The position numbers were made by a program, and so were the translations under genes. The notes beneath the pieces are model-generated. The model ran no database searches, had not been told where the DNA came from, and saw nothing but the letters and a program-made list of their open reading frames with translations. A DNA stretch of 64,000 nucleotides from a virus. Of this stretch, positions 5,230 through 48,567 are shown in pieces (the stretch's first letter is position 1; each line of letters starts with the position of its first letter). The stretch covers positions 1 through 64,000 of the IMG/VR virus record IMGVR_UViG_3300026484_000105. One strand, written 5' to 3'.

Positions 5230-5505
5230 CTACTCCTCACTCTTTTCGCAATCAACATCAAAACTTGTACATAGCATGTCTCTTATTACATCTTCATGTT
5301 TAACAGTAATACTATCCCCATCAAGATCAAGACCTTCAGTTTTCACTTTAATACCACCACCATCATCTGGAACATAACTAGTATATCCCAGACTCTCTTC
5401 GCTATCCATAAAACTCTCTACAAGAATGGTACCGTTAACGTCTTCTAACTTAGTTATAATGTCCCCAGATTCATTTTTGAATGTATCTATTACCTTTCTA
5501 CTCAT
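5230..5505 (-). CDS. acidic hypothetical protein, first gene of the early operon
   Basis: ATG at 5505 with GGAGG SD (track start 5517 is TTG). Confidence 0.65.
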   Translation of the reverse strand: MSRKVIDTFKNESGDIITKLEDVNGTILVESFMDSEESLGYTSYVPDDGGGIKVKTEGLDLDGDSITVKHEDVIRDMLCTSFDVDCEKSEE

Positions 5506-36469: not shown

Positions 36470-39400
36470 TTAATTAAAATACATCTCAACCGCTTTATCG
36501 CGTATGATGTTAAGTAATGTACTTGTAGTACCAACAATATTTGGACTACTAACTATCCTAGCGGCTATAGATCTACTGGAAAACATAGCCTCAACTTCTA
36601 TGCCATCTTCGGTTTTTATATCATAATTAAACACATCCCCAATAGTTGTTTTAAGCTGATGTCCAATAATAGCTTTATCACCTACACCCATACCTACTTC
36701 ATCTTTTATGCTAATTTTTATTTCAACATTTCCTTCAGTAAGAGGATTGCCTTTTATAGAGTAAGAGCTATTAACTTTACCAGTTATTGTTTTATTCATA
36801 TTCTCATCAGCAATTAGTTTATTGGAAGCCTTTACTAATTCTTTTAAAGTGGGACTCAGATCCTCTGTATCGCAATTATAATAAACAGTTATCTTAGTTA
36901 TAATGCCACGCATCTTAGCTTTTGGACTTCTATTTTTAATATTTTGTAGAACCTGTAAAGACTCTTTATCGAGATTACGCTTATCTATAAAATCATTACC
37001 ATCACTTATAGTAAATAAAAGATTATTGGGTTCAACCTTATCTTTTAGTTTAACTATATTCAATATTTCATCTGTAGCTTTAACTATGAAACTCTTGGAC
37101 TTAATTATACTAGTACCTAACCTATTAGTCGTCTTTGACGAAATTGTACAAGAATCCTCATATGTTTCAGTATTCTCCATAAGACCAACTTTTACGGTAG
37201 TACCAGTTTTATAAATAACTCTAGTGCTATCAAAAATATCTGGTTCAAAAAACTGTTTGTCGTACGAAATGGTGTTGCCATTCTTAAATACGTCGCCTAC
37301 CTTTAGATCGGTTATAATTGTATGTAAATAAGAAACGCCAGCTTCTTCTTTGGTATTCCACTCACCAAGTTTAACGTTCACTATCTTACCACTTTTATAT
37401 TTTATCTTAATATATGATTTTTTAACCTCCATAACTATACCATCTTCTTTAGCCATATAACAATAGTTCATATCTAGTTTATATGGTAAGATTGCTTCAT
37501 GTCCAGTTCTTACAGCAGGAACCCTCATCTCGCTCATACCTATAGTATGACTATTCTGAATATTAATAAAGTTTACATTATCTTTACATAGATCGTTACT
37601 CTATGCGATACAGTTATAAATATTTAAATCAGTAATTAATTTATAATTACATCTCATAAATAACCCCTATATGTTAATACTGTGTATTCATATAAAGCTT
37701 GTGATTAACCGTATCTCTATGGGATTTCCCCATATGATGAGACTATATCTTCAACCAATGTTATCATCTCATTGGCTGTAAACCATTTCCATTTAAAGGA
37801 TGTCTCCTACCTACATTTAGGCCGTACTCCCAATTGCGGGATAGTCGTTGAACACATACCTTTAATAAGGTACTTCGCTGCGGATCACCAATTACAATCA
37901 CAGTGACATTAATTACAACTAACTACTGATAAGGTAGCCTTGAACATTAACATTTGATCTTGCTGACTACTTAAAGCCATACATATATCTTTTACTATAC
38001 CCTAGTGGTTAGCTAGGCCCCAGACTCTTCATCCTCATGTTACCATGGTCTGGTTAGTGTATATGTCTTTACGGTTTCCCCGTCAATTAGATTTATTTAT
38101 TTTTACAACCATTACTGATTGCCGAAGCTAAAATTAACCTCTTTGGATCATCATTTGTGCTGGCAGGAGCCAATAAGGCACTTGTTGATAGGTAATTTTC
38201 AGGTTTAAGTTTGCCCTTATCAGTATCAACCATACCTCTAACAGTGTTTAATTTCGGACTAGCAGACATATACGCAGATACAGCAACATCACCACTATCT
38301 TTAACTCCCTCTGAAATAACACCTATTTCACTACTATGGATAACCCTTGTGTCCATAGACATACTTTCTTTAGACCTACCTCCAGAACCAAGGAATGTAA
38401 CATCCTCATTTTGCTTAAGCGATGCTATTGGGTTTAGATTATCAACTAACATTGAAGTACTGTCATCATTTATGTCTCTCCAAACTGCAAAAGGAGCCAT
38501 AGTGATCTTAGCCTTAGAAAAGACATTCTTATTTTCAAAATCCCTTATACTCTTAATAAGTTCTGTGTATAACATTCCAGATACACGCTCATAACCTTTT
38601 ATAAGCATTCCGTTGGCATTGTTTGGATTTATATAATTATTATCCAATAATAACTCAGCGGCTCTTATCAATAGCCCCTTAAATGTTTTTGGTTCCTTTA
38701 TGATTTCAAGAATAGATTCGGTTATAGGATCTACAAACATATCTTCCATTAACTTAATCTCATTAACATATAGAGGACTTAAGTCCATGTTATTAAAAAG
38801 TATAGGAAAGGATTCTTTTTTATCTAATAGACCATAATCAATATCCTTAAGTATTTTTGCCATTGTAGTAAACCCACCAAATATTAGAGTAGCTAGTTTA
38901 TCGTTCCTCGTTAACACTATCTTCTTATCCTTGAAGGTAACGACGTACTCATCTGGTTTTAAACTATAACGCTCTGTTCTTTTAAGAACGGTGTGCTTTG
39001 CTCTTAATAATTTTAAAAGACTAGTTATACCAAGATAATATGATAATAGTATAGCTATAGGTAGTCTCTTTTTAAATATCTTTATAACTACTGTTTCTAT
39101 AGGCATGCTAGAAGTATCTATGCCTAACTGTTCAAAAATATTAGGTAACTCTTTTAGTTTAGAACCGTTAGCTTCATACAGATTGTTATCGAAATCCATT
39201 AGAATTGGTAAACTATTAGCTGATGATCCAACAATTACATATTTACCATTTTGTTCTATGATAATGGTTTTAGCCTTAATATTCTTAACAAGATCTCTAC
39301 GATTCTTATAATCAAAGCTATATTTGTTCTTACCTACATTAAACATTCTTATATATTTACCAATATACGCATATAGATTTGGTACTTTTACATCCATTAG

Positions 39401-41191
39401 TTTAACTGGCATTAAAACAACATTGGATATAGTCTTATTAGTTTCCGTACTAGCTATAAGTTTCTTTCTAAACCAAAAACCAATATCATCTTTTTTCATA
39501 TCAGCCTTAGTTATAAATGACTTACCAAAATAACTAGTTAACGCAACCTTATTAGAATCTATCTTTCTTATAGGTTTATCGGTTCTTTGTTTGCGCATTT
39601 TATACGTATTGCCAGAAACTTTAAATTCACCATTTTCATTTATAACAGGAATCTTAAATACTAACTTACTTGGCTTGCCAGTAAGGGGTTTAATATCTAT
39701 AGTATGCGTTTCAACTCCACCCAATACAGTATTGTCTATCTCTACAGTATGGTCTTTTATAACTATATCAGCATTTTGTATAGAGTATATAGTTCTTGTT
39801 ATATCCTTAACAAAAATATTCTTTATATAATGTCTGTCCATAGCTCTTATTGGATTTTTTAATGAGGATTTATCTTTAATTATATTTATATCTGGGATAA
39901 CAGCATCCTCCTCAGGTATCTTTAGATCGCCATCTGTTATAGTAAGTAACTCTTTTAATGATTTACCATCTCCATAAGGCGATTTAGCTCGTTGTTGATG
40001 TTCCAAAGCAGCCTTGAGGTTTTCAGTTTCCTTTTTAGAAAGAAGTTTATTTTCAGACAGTACATCTATCTGTTTATTTAATTTTAATACCTGATCTATA
40101 TCCTCATTCTTTATATCTGATAGAGATTTAAATTCAGATTCTATATCGTCTACAAATTCCTTAGCTGCATCAACAGACATTATCTCATCACTTATCCTAT
40201 TATAATCAATCTCTTGCTCATCTACCTCAAAGTCACTGTTTAAGATCGCATCAGGATCTATAACCTCTTTAGTATCATCCACATCAGTTATGGCATCAAT
40301 ATCTTTATTATCTAGATTATTCTTCAATTCGCCTATAGTCATCGCCCCATTGACAGTTAATTTTTTTAAGAAGATTAGGAACATCTTTCTTAAAGTTTTA
40401 GCATCAACTTTTTGTATAGGACTATGTACATCATATTCCCTAACAGCAGATATCAACTTATATAAATTTAATAATGTTAATTTATTATTATAAACAAACA
40501 TAAGAGTTATATTGTTGGTATTAGATAATTTTACATCATTAAGTAATGATTTCCTTAAAAGTTCAGGTGTTAGATATCTCCATATCTCTAACAGATTCAA
40601 ATGTTTAGGCGTCGGAAAGTGCTCCAATACTAAATGGTTTTCTAATTTGGTATACTTTTCAAAATGAACTACATCAGGTATATTGGCTGGTACCTCTAAC
40701 ATAATATACGTATGTCTTGTATTCGTACTTAAAACCGATAGTTGTTCAGTCATGGTTTTGAATGCATTTCTCCATTTGTGATATTGCATCATTGGGTTAG
40801 GTCTGTAATGATGTACTGCATTTAAAGCTCCATAGTTATAAATTAGTAGTGTATTTTTAGATACCTTTAAAGTTTTATATAATGGATTTAAAAACTTAAT
40901 ATTGAGATTATTCTTTTTAAAATCCTTTATTATGTTCTTTATCTTTAATGTTTTAAAGTTAAAATTACCTATAGGCGATTTATATTCATATATAGTAGCT
41001 ATTATAGGTTTGCTTGAATTTTTTAAATAACCTAAATCTAAAGATGGGCATACTGGTACATCACTTACCTTAAACCATACTAATTCAGAGTTTTTTGGGA
41101 ACACCATTTCCGTATCTAAAATTATATTCGGATTAATGAATTGGTTTATTTTACGAACGCCAACACTTCTATACAGTTGATCATGTGTCAT
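36470..41191 (-). CDS. virion RNA polymerase beta subunit (phiKZ gp178-like), spliced: exon 1 41191-38137, exon 2 37575-36470, 1386 aa
   Basis: Splicing gives DDPKRLNFINIQNSH..VRTG; also GSGGRS, GVISEGVKDSGDV, TYEDS, GVGDK...QLKT. Confidence 0.9.
37576..38136 (-). ncRNA. group I self-splicing intron (561 nt, no ORF)
   Basis: 5' exon ends in U, intron ends in G. P1 GAGGU/GCUUC with U-G wobble; P2 CAAUCA-GUAA-UGGUUG; P AAUUGACGGGGAAA; Q GAUCCGCAGCG; R GUUCAACGACUAU; S AAGAUAUAGUC. Frame is restored. Confidence 0.93.
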
Positions 41192-41287: not shown

Positions 41288-42604
41288 ATGAATAAAACAT
41301 TTAAAACGATAAAGTCATCAGTAGGTAAACATAGCTATAATTTTCTAGCATTGCCAGATACTAAAGCTTTTAAAATAGAAGTAGTATTTGATTACGGTTC
41401 TAACTTAGAAAACCATTATTATAAAAAGTACGGTAAGAAGGTATTTGGTATAAGTCACCTTACAGAACATTTGTGTTTTAAATCTCCTGTTGGTTATGAT
41501 AGCGATAAATTGCTTGCCGAATTAAAAAAGAAAGGTAATAGGAATGCCAGTACTGGCCCAACACACATTAACTATTTCTTTAATACTATCATGGAGAATA
41601 TGGAATTCGGTATAGATGCAATTACTAAAGTAGCATTTAATGATTTTAGTAGAATAACTGATGAAGAGTTTGAATCTGAAAAATCAGTGGTTATGTCTGA
41701 AGTTGGCAGATACAATGATGATAAGCAAACTATGTTTAGTCTAAACACTAAGAACGCCTTAATGGGTACTGATAAAGATGATAACATTCTTGGTAGTGTT
41801 GAGATCTTAAAAGATGTTACTCTTGATGATTGTAAAAAGATCAGAGCGTTAACATTACAAGAAGCTAAGGTATGGTTTAACATAACATATGATCCAATGG
41901 AATATGTTAATGAAGATGATGTCATTGAACATATTGAAAGAGTACTAGATGACATTGATATAGTACAACAAGATGTTTCTATTGGTAGATATGAATATTA
42001 TAAACCAATTACTATTAAGAAAGATGAAATTGTTTTACCATCTGAATCTGATCGTACAATCATTAATCTTGTATTTGAAACTGATACTAACGTATGGGTT
42101 AGAAGCATGATAAACTATTATGTTTCTGCACTTGCTGATGAAACATCTCTTTACAATACAATCAGAGATAGACATGGTTTAACATATGGCGTTACATTCG
42201 GTAAAGATGATATTATGAACGTTGATCATACTAGATTAGTTGTTGATGTTGCTCCAGATAAAATCGATCTTACTATGGAACTTATAGAAGAAGTTATGGT
42301 TAAAAGTAGTGGGAAATTCAATAGAGAAATATTCGAAGAACTTATGGCCAATAGAAAGTTGAACATCACTATAGAGAGATGTAATCCAAAAACATATGGT
42401 TTCTTATTTAATACTGAAGTAGATCATCCTGAATTACTTGCTCCATTTAAAGATGTACTCGAAGACAACATTTCAAGTATAGATGAAATATTTGATGATA
42501 AATACATCACATTTGAAGCTGCAAAACAATATATGAACGAATTAGTAGAAATAACTAAATCTAAATCATATAGTAAGGTTATAAGTGAAAAAATAAAAGA
42601 TTAG
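41288..42604 (+). CDS. M16 family (insulinase-like) zinc peptidase
   Basis: GISHLTEHLCF (HxxEH), RNAST, EKSVVMSE, IRDRHGLTYGV. Confidence 0.88.
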   Translation: MNKTFKTIKSSVGKHSYNFLALPDTKAFKIEVVFDYGSNLENHYYKKYGKKVFGISHLTEHLCFKSPVGYDSDKLLAELKKKGNRNASTGPTHINYFFNTIMENMEFGIDAITKVAFNDFSRITDEEFESEKSVVMSEVGRYNDDKQTMFSLNTKNALMGTDKDDNILGSVEILKDVTLDDCKKIRALTLQEAKVWFNITYDPMEYVNEDDVIEHIERVLDDIDIVQQDVSIGRYEYYKPITIKKDEIVLPSESDRTIINLVFETDTNVWVRSMINYYVSALADETSLYNTIRDRHGLTYGVTFGKDDIMNVDHTRLVVDVAPDKIDLTMELIEEVMVKSSGKFNREIFEELMANRKLNITIERCNPKTYGFLFNTEVDHPELLAPFKDVLEDNISSIDEIFDDKYITFEAAKQYMNELVEITKSKSYSKVISEKIKD

Positions 42605-44951: not shown

Positions 44952-47900
44952 CTACCAACTTAATGTTTTAGCTACAATATCAATTACAGTATTAGATGCA
45001 GAATACGTTAGATTACCCTCAGGGGTTATATAAAAACTTCTTTTTCTAAAAGTTTCATGTAATTCATCTATGGCTTCTTTTGTATGTAATATTACATATG
45101 AGCATTTATCACCATCAACGTTGCCTTCATCCGTATCGTTACTACGAACAGTTCTCTTATGAACTTCTCTAGCTCTCACTAGAAGACGAGACTATATCAT
45201 GCTCTTCTGACACTATATCAGTAAGAGCCAAACCACTTCGATTTAAGCACTAGGTACGTGCACCCACTTGGGCCCTACTCCCCGCTACAGGATAGTCGTT
45301 GAACTTTACCCATATTATTTTTTAATAACTTAGGGTCTTAGCTGCTAAAGGGAACCTTAGGTTCCACGGTTACCTATTATACTATTATAGTGCTGATATT
45401 CATAAACATTTAGTTAGTTACTCTAAACTAAAATATCGAGGCTATATTAATATTAATCACTTAAGATCATCCATACAAGATACAATACTGTATCCCAGTA
45501 GCTTTGCAACTACTCTTGTTAAACCATCATAGACTAGTTTCCTGCCTATTGTGGTGGTATAGCTTTAAGGCTTTCCAGCAATTCAATTTGTTATTCGACA
45601 TGCTTCTCAACATGAAGGATCAATTTGTTCTTTAACTTAAATTTAACAACATCTTTTGGACTCGTGTCCATGGGCAACTTCTCACCCTTACATAAATCAA
45701 GTATATTCCGATAATACTTGTTATTAACAACATACATTTTCTCTTTACACAGCATATAAGTTAGATATTCTTCTATGTTCTTTAGCTTAGTAAACGGTAT
45801 CCTTATAAGAGGGATCTTATTCATTTTAGCTAAATGGTTCTTTTCGGCATCAGACTTCTTCTGTATTTTGAATGCTTTCTCGCCACCAAAGAACTTTACA
45901 GGTTTGAAATGTTGTATACCATCAAATTCTATTAGAATATTTAATTCTGGTAGATAGAAGTCATACATGTATCTATTTTCATTAAGCCGATAATTCTTGA
46001 TGTAATCAATCTTATTAAGTTCCAAAAATATACGTATACGTTGCTCACCTTTAGATTCGCTACATAACGGACACCCAGCTTGTTTATGTATATGGTCATC
46101 AGGCGTAATTCTAAATTCACCATGTTTTTTACAAATTAATGTAACCTTAGTTTTCTTATTTGTATAATTAACCATACTATAATCATATCTAGAACCGTGT
46201 AAATTTATAGCCTTCTCTATCCATTCTTTAGTAGTGTAGTTATAATTATTAGTACATTTAACACACTTAGCCCCATTATAATGGTTCCATGGAATTTGTT
46301 CGAAATCACCATGTACCCTACATCTTATAGTAACCTTATTTTTTGAATTTATATATTTAGTTTTACTATAATCATATAGATCACCATGAACCTTTCTCGA
46401 ACGTTCTATAAATTCTTCTGTAGTTAATGTATCCTGTTCTACCCTACTTACGATACCGCATTGTTTACAGCCACTACCAGATATATGATGAAATCTGTTT
46501 TGTGTAAACTCACCATGTATCGGACAGATGATTTTTATACTACCATCCTTAACGCTATAGCTTTCTGGTATATATAAATACTTACCATTATGCACTTTAT
46601 TAGCTTTATCAATGAACTTCTTGGCCTTAGATAGAATCTTATTAATAGGAGTTATATAAGCGCATTTGGGACATCCCTGTCCTTTTATATGTTTAGTTGG
46701 TTTTTGCTTAAACGGACCGTGTTCTTTACACTGTATAGTTACTGCAGTCCTTGCATCTATGAATTCAACTAATGTATAATTGTACCTATTACCGTGTGCT
46801 TCATGGGCCTTTAATAAGAAGGTTTCTTTTGTCATTCTTAATTTATCTTTAGCACATTCTCTACACCCTTGTTTATTCCGTATATGTGAAAATGGTCTTT
46901 GTTTAAAATCACCATGTATCGGACATGTGATTATTAGTGGTACGTCAGATAGTATGTACTCTGTTTTGTCGTACCTGTATTTGTTGTTATGTACTTCTTT
47001 GGCTTTCTTTATAAAAGCTTCTGTTTTTGTTGTTTTCATTTTTTTCCTATTAGTTTATGTATGTAAATAATATGCGTTTATTATCTATTTCACTCTAATA
47101 GTACCCGTAAAAAAATCAATCTGCGCCTAATAAATTTAGGTGGGTGAAGTGGGGTGATAACGAGTTCTGGTATGCCTCTGTTAATATCGGATATTCATAA
47201 ACCGTATCAGCCTCTTTCCAATCTACTCCTAAAATGCTAACTTTTCTAGCCTTAACTGTTGTTTTTAGATAAGGTATACTTGGATATATTCCACCTAGAC
47301 CAGTAACAGGGTATCTAGTAAGAAAGCCAGGATATTTATCAACATCTTCATATACAGCTAAGTATATAAGTTCTGCATATGTTATCGGTCTTAAATATTT
47401 GGTATTTATATCATCAGGTATTTCATTAGTATTCTTAATAAACTTAACCTCTTTACCATTATCATATATTAAGGCTAGATAATAATCCTCAACAGTTATA
47501 GGTTCAGATCTTAATTCATCTTGAGCTAATTTATTTATAACTCCATTAAGTCCTTCATCAGATGTCCACATGTCTTTTGTTTTTGGTTTTATATCTACAT
47601 TTACTGTTCTCATAGATTTTTTATCTACAAGCATAGCTGTATTACTATGTAAATCAAATATGTTATTTAACATAAGATTATTTAACTGGTACTTAGTAAT
47701 GGGATTGATAGCTTTAGCATATTGATATAAACCTATAACAGTATTATTAAAACTAATTCTATTTTTAGTATTAGTTAAATCATGTATTACTGATGGTACT
47801 GGTGTGATGACATTTCTGGTAGAATCTCTAAGAGCTCTCTTAGTCCACTTATTTTGTATAAATTTCTTCTTACCATCCATTAAAGAAATATAATGATCGT

Positions 47901-48567
47901 ATATCTCAACTATGATAGTTTGTATCTTAAATCTTATTGGATCTAATACCATAGGATCGTTATGTAGAGTAGAGATGTTTTCTAATGCATTTGTTGTGGT
48001 TAGTAGCCTCCTATAAACAGCATTTATTTCATCTTCACTTGGCTTACCATTATCATCAACAATATAATCCCTTAGTCCAGCAGGTATGACTAAAAAGTGA
48101 TCTATGAGTATTTCACCCTTACTATATTTTTTAATAAGCTTTATTTTAAATTCCCTGGCATCACTACCATTACTATTTAATTTAATTTTATCATACTTTT
48201 TCATAAAGAATTCGAAACCAGTATCTCCTTCTTCTGCATTAGAGGAAATGAAATCTCCACCTTTTTCATCCCATTTTGCATAAGTCTTACCAGATAGTAT
48301 ATCTAAATATAACTTTTTTAAACTTGAGATATGTTTAAAGACAAGTGGGTGTAGAACCTTTATATGTAATTTTATATAACCGAATTTATTATTCCGTTCT
48401 TCACTTCCGACCCGACCGAAAGTCTCAGTAGAGAATAAACCATTAGTACTGAAGTTTTTAGTAGATGGTTCAAATATACTTAGGTCACTTACTTCCCTCA
48501 TTACACCTATCTGTTTTCTATTTAATAATAGTAAATCTATATTAAAAGGTGGTAAATTTGACAGCAT
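44952..48567 (-). CDS. virion RNA polymerase beta' catalytic subunit (phiKZ gp180-like), spliced: exon 1 48567-47118, exon 2 45118-44952, 538 aa
   Basis: GLFSTETFG, VIPAGLRD, TRNVIT, TRYPV; GAT T + TT GAT GGT GAT restores LGADFDGD. Confidence 0.93.
45119..47117 (-). mobile_element. group I intron (1999 nt) carrying a homing endonuclease
   Basis: U at the 5' splice site, terminal G. P1 GAUU/GAUU pairs with AAUUGAUC (45618-45625); P2 CAUGUU-GAGA-AGCAUG; P AAUUGCUGGAAA; Q UUAGCAGCUAAG; R GUUCAACGACUAU (45292-45304); S AUGAUAUAGUC (45190-45200). Confidence 0.93.
45591..47039 (-). CDS. intron-encoded homing endonuclease: 5 Zn-binding repeats (DUF723-like) plus Vsr/EDxHD-type nuclease domain
   Basis: Five F/W-I/L..A/S...H...Y.Y...C..HG.F......H....C..C repeats; C-terminal ESKGE, YDFYLP, IEFDGIQHF, SDAEKN, LIRIP. 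Confidence 0.85.
   Translation of the reverse strand: MKTTKTEAFIKKAKEVHNNKYRYDKTEYILSDVPLIITCPIHGDFKQRPFSHIRNKQGCRECAKDKLRMTKETFLLKAHEAHGNRYNYTLVEFIDARTAVTIQCKEHGPFKQKPTKHIKGQGCPKCAYITPINKILSKAKKFIDKANKVHNGKYLYIPESYSVKDGSIKIICPIHGEFTQNRFHHISGSGCKQCGIVSRVEQDTLTTEEFIERSRKVHGDLYDYSKTKYINSKNKVTIRCRVHGDFEQIPWNHYNGAKCVKCTNNYNYTTKEWIEKAINLHGSRYDYSMVNYTNKKTKVTLICKKHGEFRITPDDHIHKQAGCPLCSESKGEQRIRIFLELNKIDYIKNYRLNENRYMYDFYLPELNILIEFDGIQHFKPVKFFGGEKAFKIQKKSDAEKNHLAKMNKIPLIRIPFTKLKNIEEYLTYMLCKEKMYVVNNKYYRNILDLCKGEKLPMDTSPKDVVKFKLKNKLILHVEKHVE

Follow-up and report, generated by a model that had tools for sequence, protein, structure and literature searches.

A predicted homing endonuclease with five zinc modules and a Vsr-like nuclease domain in a group I intron of a jumbo phage virion RNA polymerase gene

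The stretch of DNA analysed here, referred to as the window, comprises the first 64 kb of a 109,992-nucleotide (nt) virus contig from IMG/VR (IMGVR_UViG_3300026484_000105, positions 1 to 64,000), which has an estimated completeness of ~41% and a G+C content of ~31%. It contains an intact open reading frame (ORF) of 482 amino acids (aa) that lies within a group I intron and is predicted to encode a homing endonuclease. The intron interrupts a gene for a subunit of the virion RNA polymerase (vRNAP), and the genes surrounding the ORF are of the phiKZ-like jumbo phage type. The features of the interrupted gene, with the evidence for each in brackets, are as follows.

47118..48567, minus strand: exon 1 of the gene for the N-terminal part of the vRNAP beta' subunit (beta' N), orthologue of phiKZ gp180 and PhiPA3 gp212, ending ...LLGAD plus T (phrog_2986, PhiPA3 match)
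45119..47117, minus strand: group I intron, 1999 nt, starting after U and ending in G (Rfam RF00028, spliced frame, compensatory pairs)
47040..47117, minus strand: 5' leader of the intron, in which a Shine-Dalgarno-like AGGA precedes the endonuclease ATG (sequence; alignment with two related introns, L003 and L006)
45591..47039, minus strand: predicted homing endonuclease ORF, 482 aa, intact (ORF call, Pfam and PHROG matches, repeats, structure model, ratio of nonsynonymous to synonymous substitution rates, dN/dS)
45119..45590, minus strand: ribozyme portion of the intron, downstream of the ORF (Rfam match, alignment, covariation)
44952..45118, minus strand: exon 2 of the beta' N gene, TT GAT GGT GAT ... 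W stop (phrog_2986 profile positions 482-537)

The ORF upstream of the intron (47116-48567, minus strand) matches phrog_2986 ('RNA polymerase beta subunit') with an E-value of 4e-164 over profile positions 3-484 of 539. PhiPA3 has one gene matching the beta' N protein of the window, gp212, which is annotated as similar to phiKZ gp180 and has as neighbors a giant tail/lysin gene and the gp178-type gene gp211/210/209, the arrangement also seen in the window. The profile match, together with the match to gp212 and its neighborhood, therefore assigns the interrupted gene to the beta' N-terminal subunit of the vRNAP. The best relatives of this protein in cultured phages are only ~40% identical. No second RNA polymerase (RNAP) gene encoding a DFDGD-like motif (D[FYWLIVM]DGD) was found on the 110-kb contig besides the split one; a DLDGD match at 5302-5340 lies within an unrelated 95-aa ORF and was rejected as RNAP.

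Exon 1 ends at 47118 (...GGC GCA GAT T) and exon 2 starts at 45118 (TT GAT GGT GAT), giving the splice junction GGCGCAGATT/TTGATGGTGAT. Ligation of the exons yields ...HLNLLGADFDGDKCSYV, which is in frame and reads LLGADFDGDKC, with the intron splitting GAD/FDGD, and the phrog_2986 profile is continuous across the exon join. Boundaries of the form ...GATT/G...ACG/TT restore GADFDGD in all three phages compared, namely that of the window and the two described below as L003 and L006. Rfam model RF00028 matches at 45167-45455 when a 571-nt region is searched alone (42.5 bits, E-value 1.6e-9, gathering score 50), and a search of a 12-kb region did not detect the beta' N intron. The ribozyme parts of the three homologous introns contain 9 base pairs that are changed on both sides, five of them in the last hairpin. 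Judged by these sequence features, the insert is a real group I intron located within the codons of the Mg-binding loop. RNAalifold proposes one candidate P1 helix, between the 3' end of exon 1 and GAAUUGC directly after the ORF stop; the ORF would then be contained in the P1 loop. A second candidate for P1 or the internal guide has 5 base pairs and involves GAUCU at ~45468, and there is no exon covariation that favours either.

A 76-nt stretch of the intron directly 3' of the ORF (45510-45585, minus strand) is 82% identical to PhiPA3 DNA (L001:4001-4078). The PhiPA3 copy lies at the beginning of gp133, a 'putative endonuclease' encoded where a DnaB-like helicase gene is split in two (gp134/gp131). 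It therefore seems that this distant jumbo phage has a related intron in another gene. A second group I intron of the window, which is ORF-less, splits the vRNAP beta gene (37576-38146, minus strand) and is matched by RF00028 at 37717-38146 (63.9 bits, cut-off 50, E-value 9e-16). The two halves of the beta gene correspond to an upstream ORF at 38093-41191 (phrog_3148 positions 3-1056) and a downstream ORF at 36470-37537 (positions 1071-1420), and the intron is ~10 nt downstream of the PhiPA3 gp210 insertion point, which is at the NDD codons. Because beta and beta' N each carry an intron, both vRNAP catalytic genes of the window phage are interrupted. A 438-aa ORF with no PHROG match is encoded between them on the opposite strand (41288-42604, plus strand).

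In terms of domain composition, the 482-aa protein is divided as follows.

46851..47021, minus strand: zinc module 1, residues 7-63, with C39, H42, C59 and C62 (repeat alignment)
46656..46826, minus strand: zinc module 2, residues 72-128, with C104, H107, C123 and C126 (repeat alignment)
46452..46622, minus strand: zinc module 3, residues 140-196, with C172, H175, C191 and C194 (repeat alignment)
46248..46418, minus strand: zinc module 4, residues 208-264, with C240, H243, C259 and C262 (repeat alignment; model of a repeat pair with a predicted local distance difference test score, pLDDT, of 94)
46059..46229, minus strand: zinc module 5, residues 271-327, with C303, H306, C323 and C326 (repeat alignment, repeat-pair model)
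45750..46058, minus strand: Vsr/EDxHD-like nuclease domain, residues 328-430, with E332, D360, E371, H377 and D397 (conservation, fold match)
45594..45749, minus strand: C-terminal tail, residues 431-482, of low model confidence, pLDDT 50-60 (AlphaFold2 model, comparison with L006)

The five tandem units of ~57 aa each consist of C-x2-H followed, after 16-17 residues, by C-x2-C, and all 20 zinc ligands are intact. Pairwise identity between the modules is 31-49%, and their alignment scores lie 14-27 standard deviations above shuffled controls. Among Pfam families the protein matches DUF723 with 53 bits (cut-off 20.9), DUF4379 ('probable treble clef zinc finger') with 23.1 bits, just under its cut-off of 24.5, and DUF559 weakly. 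Among PHROGs it matches phrog_559 (E-value 6e-88), phrog_681 and phrog_9084 ('homing endonuclease'), and phrog_4605 on five stretches. Neither Pfam nor PHROGs gave a NUMOD or helix-turn-helix (HTH) match in the N-terminus. The Pfam scan likewise gave no HNH family and the fold is that of Vsr, which makes the PHROG label 'HNH endonuclease' a misnomer, in agreement with a recent report (PMC11878797).

An AlphaFold2 model based on 41 homologues reaches a mean pLDDT of 84.8, with every repeat above 90. In this model, residues ~327 to ~450 match the Vsr protein of the Vsr-DNA complex (1cw0_A) with a Z-score of 10.3 (114 aligned residues, root-mean-square deviation, rmsd, 3.0) and the catalytic domain of I-Bth0305I (3r3p_A) with a Z-score of 9.7 (94 of 97 residues aligned, rmsd 2.8); RAP domains, TnsA and further restriction-fold proteins rank next. 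D360 and E371 are invariant among the 41 homologues, and E332, H377 and D397 are conserved in at least 90% of them. The spacing between D360 and H377 is 17, equal to that between D196 and H213 of I-Bth0305I, which correspond to D51 and H69 of Vsr (PMC3239194). The initial annotation had described five Cys/His repeats of ~60 aa preceding a Vsr/EDxHD-type domain, a description that the repeat alignment and the fold match bear out. Searches of PDB sequences with the 482-aa protein returned a single, spurious antibody match by phmmer, and AbaSI at an E-value of 0.3 by profile search. Two structural resemblances are recorded here as side observations: apicomplexan mitoribosomal proteins annotated with RAP (Vsr-like) domains head the matches of the nuclease domain, and a Trypanosoma mitoribosome assembly factor (PDB 6yxx_E2) gives the best, albeit weak, match to model residues 70-327 (Z-score 4.1, 107 residues, two modules).

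Two relatives carry an intron at exactly the same position as the window: L003, a 206-kb IMG/VR contig whose beta' N protein is 79% identical to that of the window, and L006, a 10.5-kb metagenome contig. The sequence of a further relative (L008) stops before the insertion site. The L006 intron is 1817 nt long, and its enzyme (L006/P0004) has 425 aa and four modules, having cleanly lost, in register, one unit made up of the C-terminal half of module 1 and the N-terminal half of module 2 (HGD/FKQ to HGP/FKQ). The L003 intron is 666 nt long, and its endonuclease gene has been deleted down to 13 N-terminal and 21 C-terminal codons (L003:5531-5637), with the ATG changed to ATA and the deletion joint located at a CCAAA(A)GA microhomology. 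These three states are classic stages in the life cycle of a homing endonuclease. A metagenomic protein that is 88% identical to the window enzyme (P0001) departs from it only in module 5 and the first part of the nuclease, where it has a divergent version.

The exons of these alleles also carry variation next to the intron. Exon 1 of L003 and L006 is 95.6% identical overall, yet 7 of the last 23 nt beside the intron differ, and in the last 14 nt of the L003 exon 13 positions match the window allele. Such a divergent patch is of the kind expected from co-conversion or from target-site change or drift.

The endonuclease gene is under purifying selection. Between the window and L006, dN/dS is 0.12 over the gene and 0.10 over the repeats as well as over the nuclease (dS being saturated at 1.4-2.0), and because of these values of ~0.1 both the five-module and the four-module protein appear to have been kept functional. 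When the window is compared with L006, identity is 65-85% over the ORF body and 76% over the exons, but 95-100% over the block formed by the final ~150 nt of the ORF and the ribozyme; dS falls from 1.4-2.0 across the remainder of the gene to 0.2 in the C-terminal tail. Either this 3' block was exchanged recently, or the tail is under constraint at the RNA level. That the tail overlaps such highly conserved RNA would also fit a remnant protein, decaying or domesticated, that has no nuclease activity and acts for instance in splicing or as a DNA-binding protein, as would the seeming fixation of the intron in the clade and the loss of the gene in one relative, as seen late in the homing cycle. 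We regard this as very improbable: all 20 of the 20 zinc ligands as well as E332, D360, H377 and D397 are intact, dN/dS is ~0.1 across repeats and nuclease, and we know of no maturase activity in this endonuclease family. Instead, the sequence suggests a well-preserved enzyme that is probably active.

The domain make-up and the intron setting lead us to interpret the ORF as an intron-borne homing endonuclease, which we predict, with good confidence, to cut intron-less beta' N alleles near the DFDGD codons. Through its array of five zinc modules of treble-clef-like type (CapR/DUF723/DUF4379-like), the protein is most likely held on a long DNA stretch around the intron-less junction, while the C-terminal Vsr-type (EDxHD-like) domain would cut or nick close by. 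The natural substrate would be an intron-less vRNAP beta' N allele at or near GGCGCAGATT/TTGATGGTGAT. The initial annotation had placed the target there by homing logic, and the presence of the junction, the in-frame join and the same-site introns in two relatives are consistent with this placement. A cut in a co-infecting intron-less relative would be repaired from the intron-bearing copy, so that the intron and its endonuclease gene spread, and the group I ribozyme would excise the insert from the mRNA and restore the DFDGD catalytic loop. DNA binding by the modules is proposed because the CapR zinc domain binds DNA specifically, requiring conserved Cys residues whose mutants lose binding (PMC8096241), and because of published domain comparisons (PMC10448857, PMC12350094).

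Several observations weigh against this interpretation. The Pfam scan recovered DUF723 and DUF4379 and no CapR model, the link to CapR coming from the literature. When a two-repeat model (pLDDT 94) was compared with 48,161 chains, the best Z-score was only 4.1, for kinetoplastid mitoribosome factors; the modelled module fold is thus without a clear solved relative, which does not imply that the fold is novel. The Rfam score of the intron (42.5) is below the curated cut-off of 50. An intron-less allele was not found in IMG/VR or the JGI metagenomes, and the intron is present in each of the three alleles in which the site is covered. Finally, we found no report in the literature of an assayed member of the zinc-module subfamily, and cleavage or nicking, its chemistry and strand pattern, and the exact target are predictions.

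In addition to homing, the same enzyme might serve as an inter-phage weapon that damages the vRNAP beta' gene of intron-less rivals and lowers their yield, as PhiPA3 gp210 does against phiKZ. The initial annotation had cited PhiPA3 as precedent, and the analogy holds in so far as interference by an intron endonuclease is documented among nucleus-forming jumbo phages (PMC11620839); it does not extend to the enzyme or the gene, gp210 being an HNH nickase in beta and not beta'. The target lies within an essential, conserved motif, and known jumbo phages carry uninterrupted sites resembling the junction. When the 48-nt junction was compared with cultured phages, 23 of 26 nt matched in the vRNAP of Klebsiella phage Eowyn and in rpoC1 of Bacillus phage Goe21, 29 of 35 nt matched in Staphylococcus jumbo phages (Madawaska), and an exact 19-mer was found in crAss-like phages; PhiPA3 gp212 matches the junction core at 14 of 18 nt. 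However, the phages with matching sites infect unrelated hosts, the close alleles are intron-bearing in three of three cases and hence immune, and phiKZ was not significantly affected by untagged gp210, which the phiKZ nucleus did not import (PMC11620839). We therefore view a role as a weapon as possible but unlikely.

Two further targets had been suggested on the grounds of a shared motif, the beta' gene of the phage's own non-virion RNA polymerase (nvRNAP) and host rpoC, which the enzyme would cut at the NADFDGD codons. The exact 18-mer of the junction, GCAGATTTTGATGGTGAT, is indeed present in at least 120 prokaryotic contigs, with 34 of the 80 examined representing cellular RNAP NADFDGD codons, and I-Bth0305I tolerates many single substitutions (PMC3239194). 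But cellular rpoC shares at most this 18-nt core: the flanks match at random level (median 26 of 48 nt, maximum 33 of 48). The nvRNAP beta' gene is not on the 110-kb contig, and in the 206-kb relative (G001) nvRNAP beta' N is uninterrupted at NADFDGD and matches at 18 of the 30 central nt. Because that site has no intron, there has been no ectopic homing in the G001 nvRNAP gene, and self-cleavage of the nvRNAP gene would harm the phage. Neither suggestion is upheld by these comparisons, and we consider cutting of nvRNAP or rpoC very improbable. A homing endonuclease directed at intron-less beta' N alleles remains the preferred reading.

The zinc modules might be independent, exchangeable DNA-reading units, with the five-module, four-module and repeat-5-swapped variants giving a first handle on a modular code; we consider this quite improbable, and if true, modular recognition would add a new scaffold for programmable DNA binding to those already provided by zinc fingers and transcription activator-like effectors (TALEs). 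We know of no module-to-DNA recognition code or solved structure for these modules. The proposal in the initial annotation that the array may be reprogrammable accordingly stands only as far as the natural loss and swap of repeats, and the idea itself is already present in earlier work (PMC10448857).

The locus offers a clean and, from its sequence, apparently active example of a very large homing-endonuclease family, inserted where an essential polymerase gene of a jumbo phage encodes its catalytic loop. Three same-site alleles (five modules, four modules, gene deleted) and a natural swap of module 5 form a comparison set for the part of each module in target choice, and this tidy natural series on zinc-module function is the main value of the locus. 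The same alleles can be used for asking whether such enzymes act in competition between co-infecting nucleus-forming phages.

Among known systems, CapR and the T5orf172 endonucleases (PMC8096241, PMC10448857) share tandem zinc-finger modules and the same Pfam neighborhood with the window enzyme. Their modules are fused to the GIY-YIG-related T5orf172 nuclease, or to none in CapR, and their ligands are CxxC...CxC, whereas those of the window enzyme are CxxH...CxxC. Repeated CapR/DUF723 zinc fingers in T5orf172 homing endonucleases were described in 2023, and their modularity was proposed to speed target diversification (PMC10448857).

I-Bth0305I, the EDxHD prototype (PMC3239194, PDB 3R3P), resembles the window enzyme in being encoded in a phage group I intron and in having an N-terminal DNA-binding region and a C-terminal Vsr-fold nuclease. 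The E, D, H and D residues of the Vsr-like fold are conserved in the window enzyme and the D...H spacing is equivalent, but sequence similarity is undetectable by phmmer or hmmsearch, and DNA binding by I-Bth0305I involves two NUMOD2/HTH motifs in place of five zinc modules. I-Bth0305I acts as a homodimer that cuts a pseudopalindrome and leaves 2-nt 5' overhangs (PMC3239194). The sequence TTTGATGGTGATAA within the junction agrees with the I-Bth0305I consensus TTxG-x6-CxAA at 5 of the 6 specified bases, which we take as coincidence. The 'Hef' endonuclease has also been described as Vsr-like (PMC3239194); in Acj9 there is no Hef annotation within the first 50 kb, and no homologue of the window enzyme was found.

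Like the window enzyme, PhiPA3 gp210 (PMC11620839) is encoded in an intron that a phiKZ-like phage carries in one of its virion RNAP genes, at conserved catalytic-region codons; its intron follows two conserved aspartates in the beta gene. The two differ in enzyme class, gp210 being an HNH nicking enzyme and the window enzyme of Vsr type, and in location, gp210 residing in beta (gp178 homologue) and the window enzyme in the neighbouring beta' N gene (gp180 homologue).

The closest counterpart is a family described in 2025 (PMC12350094), whose endonucleases combine a zinc-module array with a Vsr-like domain and are encoded by introns, of groups I and II, that interrupt vRNAP beta' N genes; thousands of homologues were reported. 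PHROG 559 proteins with a VSR signature were reported in the same year from group I introns of Bastillevirinae terminase genes (PMC11878797). In our own searches, the family was represented in at least 1066 phage records at 2652 places; among 8000 metagenomic candidates scored, 6476 proteins matched at an E-value of at most 1e-3, and the 120 best matches contain 4-11 modules. Two distant relatives (L012 and L016) look free-standing. The window enzyme shows the features of the PMC12350094/PHROG 559 family, with tandem zinc modules, a C-terminal Vsr/EDxHD-like domain of ~100 aa and an intron location. Domain order, module size and module number are the same, as is the PHROG family (phrog_559, E-value 6e-88), and the host gene is of the same kind, virion RNAP beta' N genes invaded by such introns being the subject of the Fig. 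5A legend of that paper. It differs in the phage, an uncultured phiKZ-like contig of 31% G+C with a beta' N protein ~40% identical to those of known phages, and in that the insertion is shown here inside the DFDGD codons, with five-repeat, four-repeat and gene-deleted states side by side. The enzyme thus adds an instance and further detail to the family described in 2025, and is not a new kind of system.

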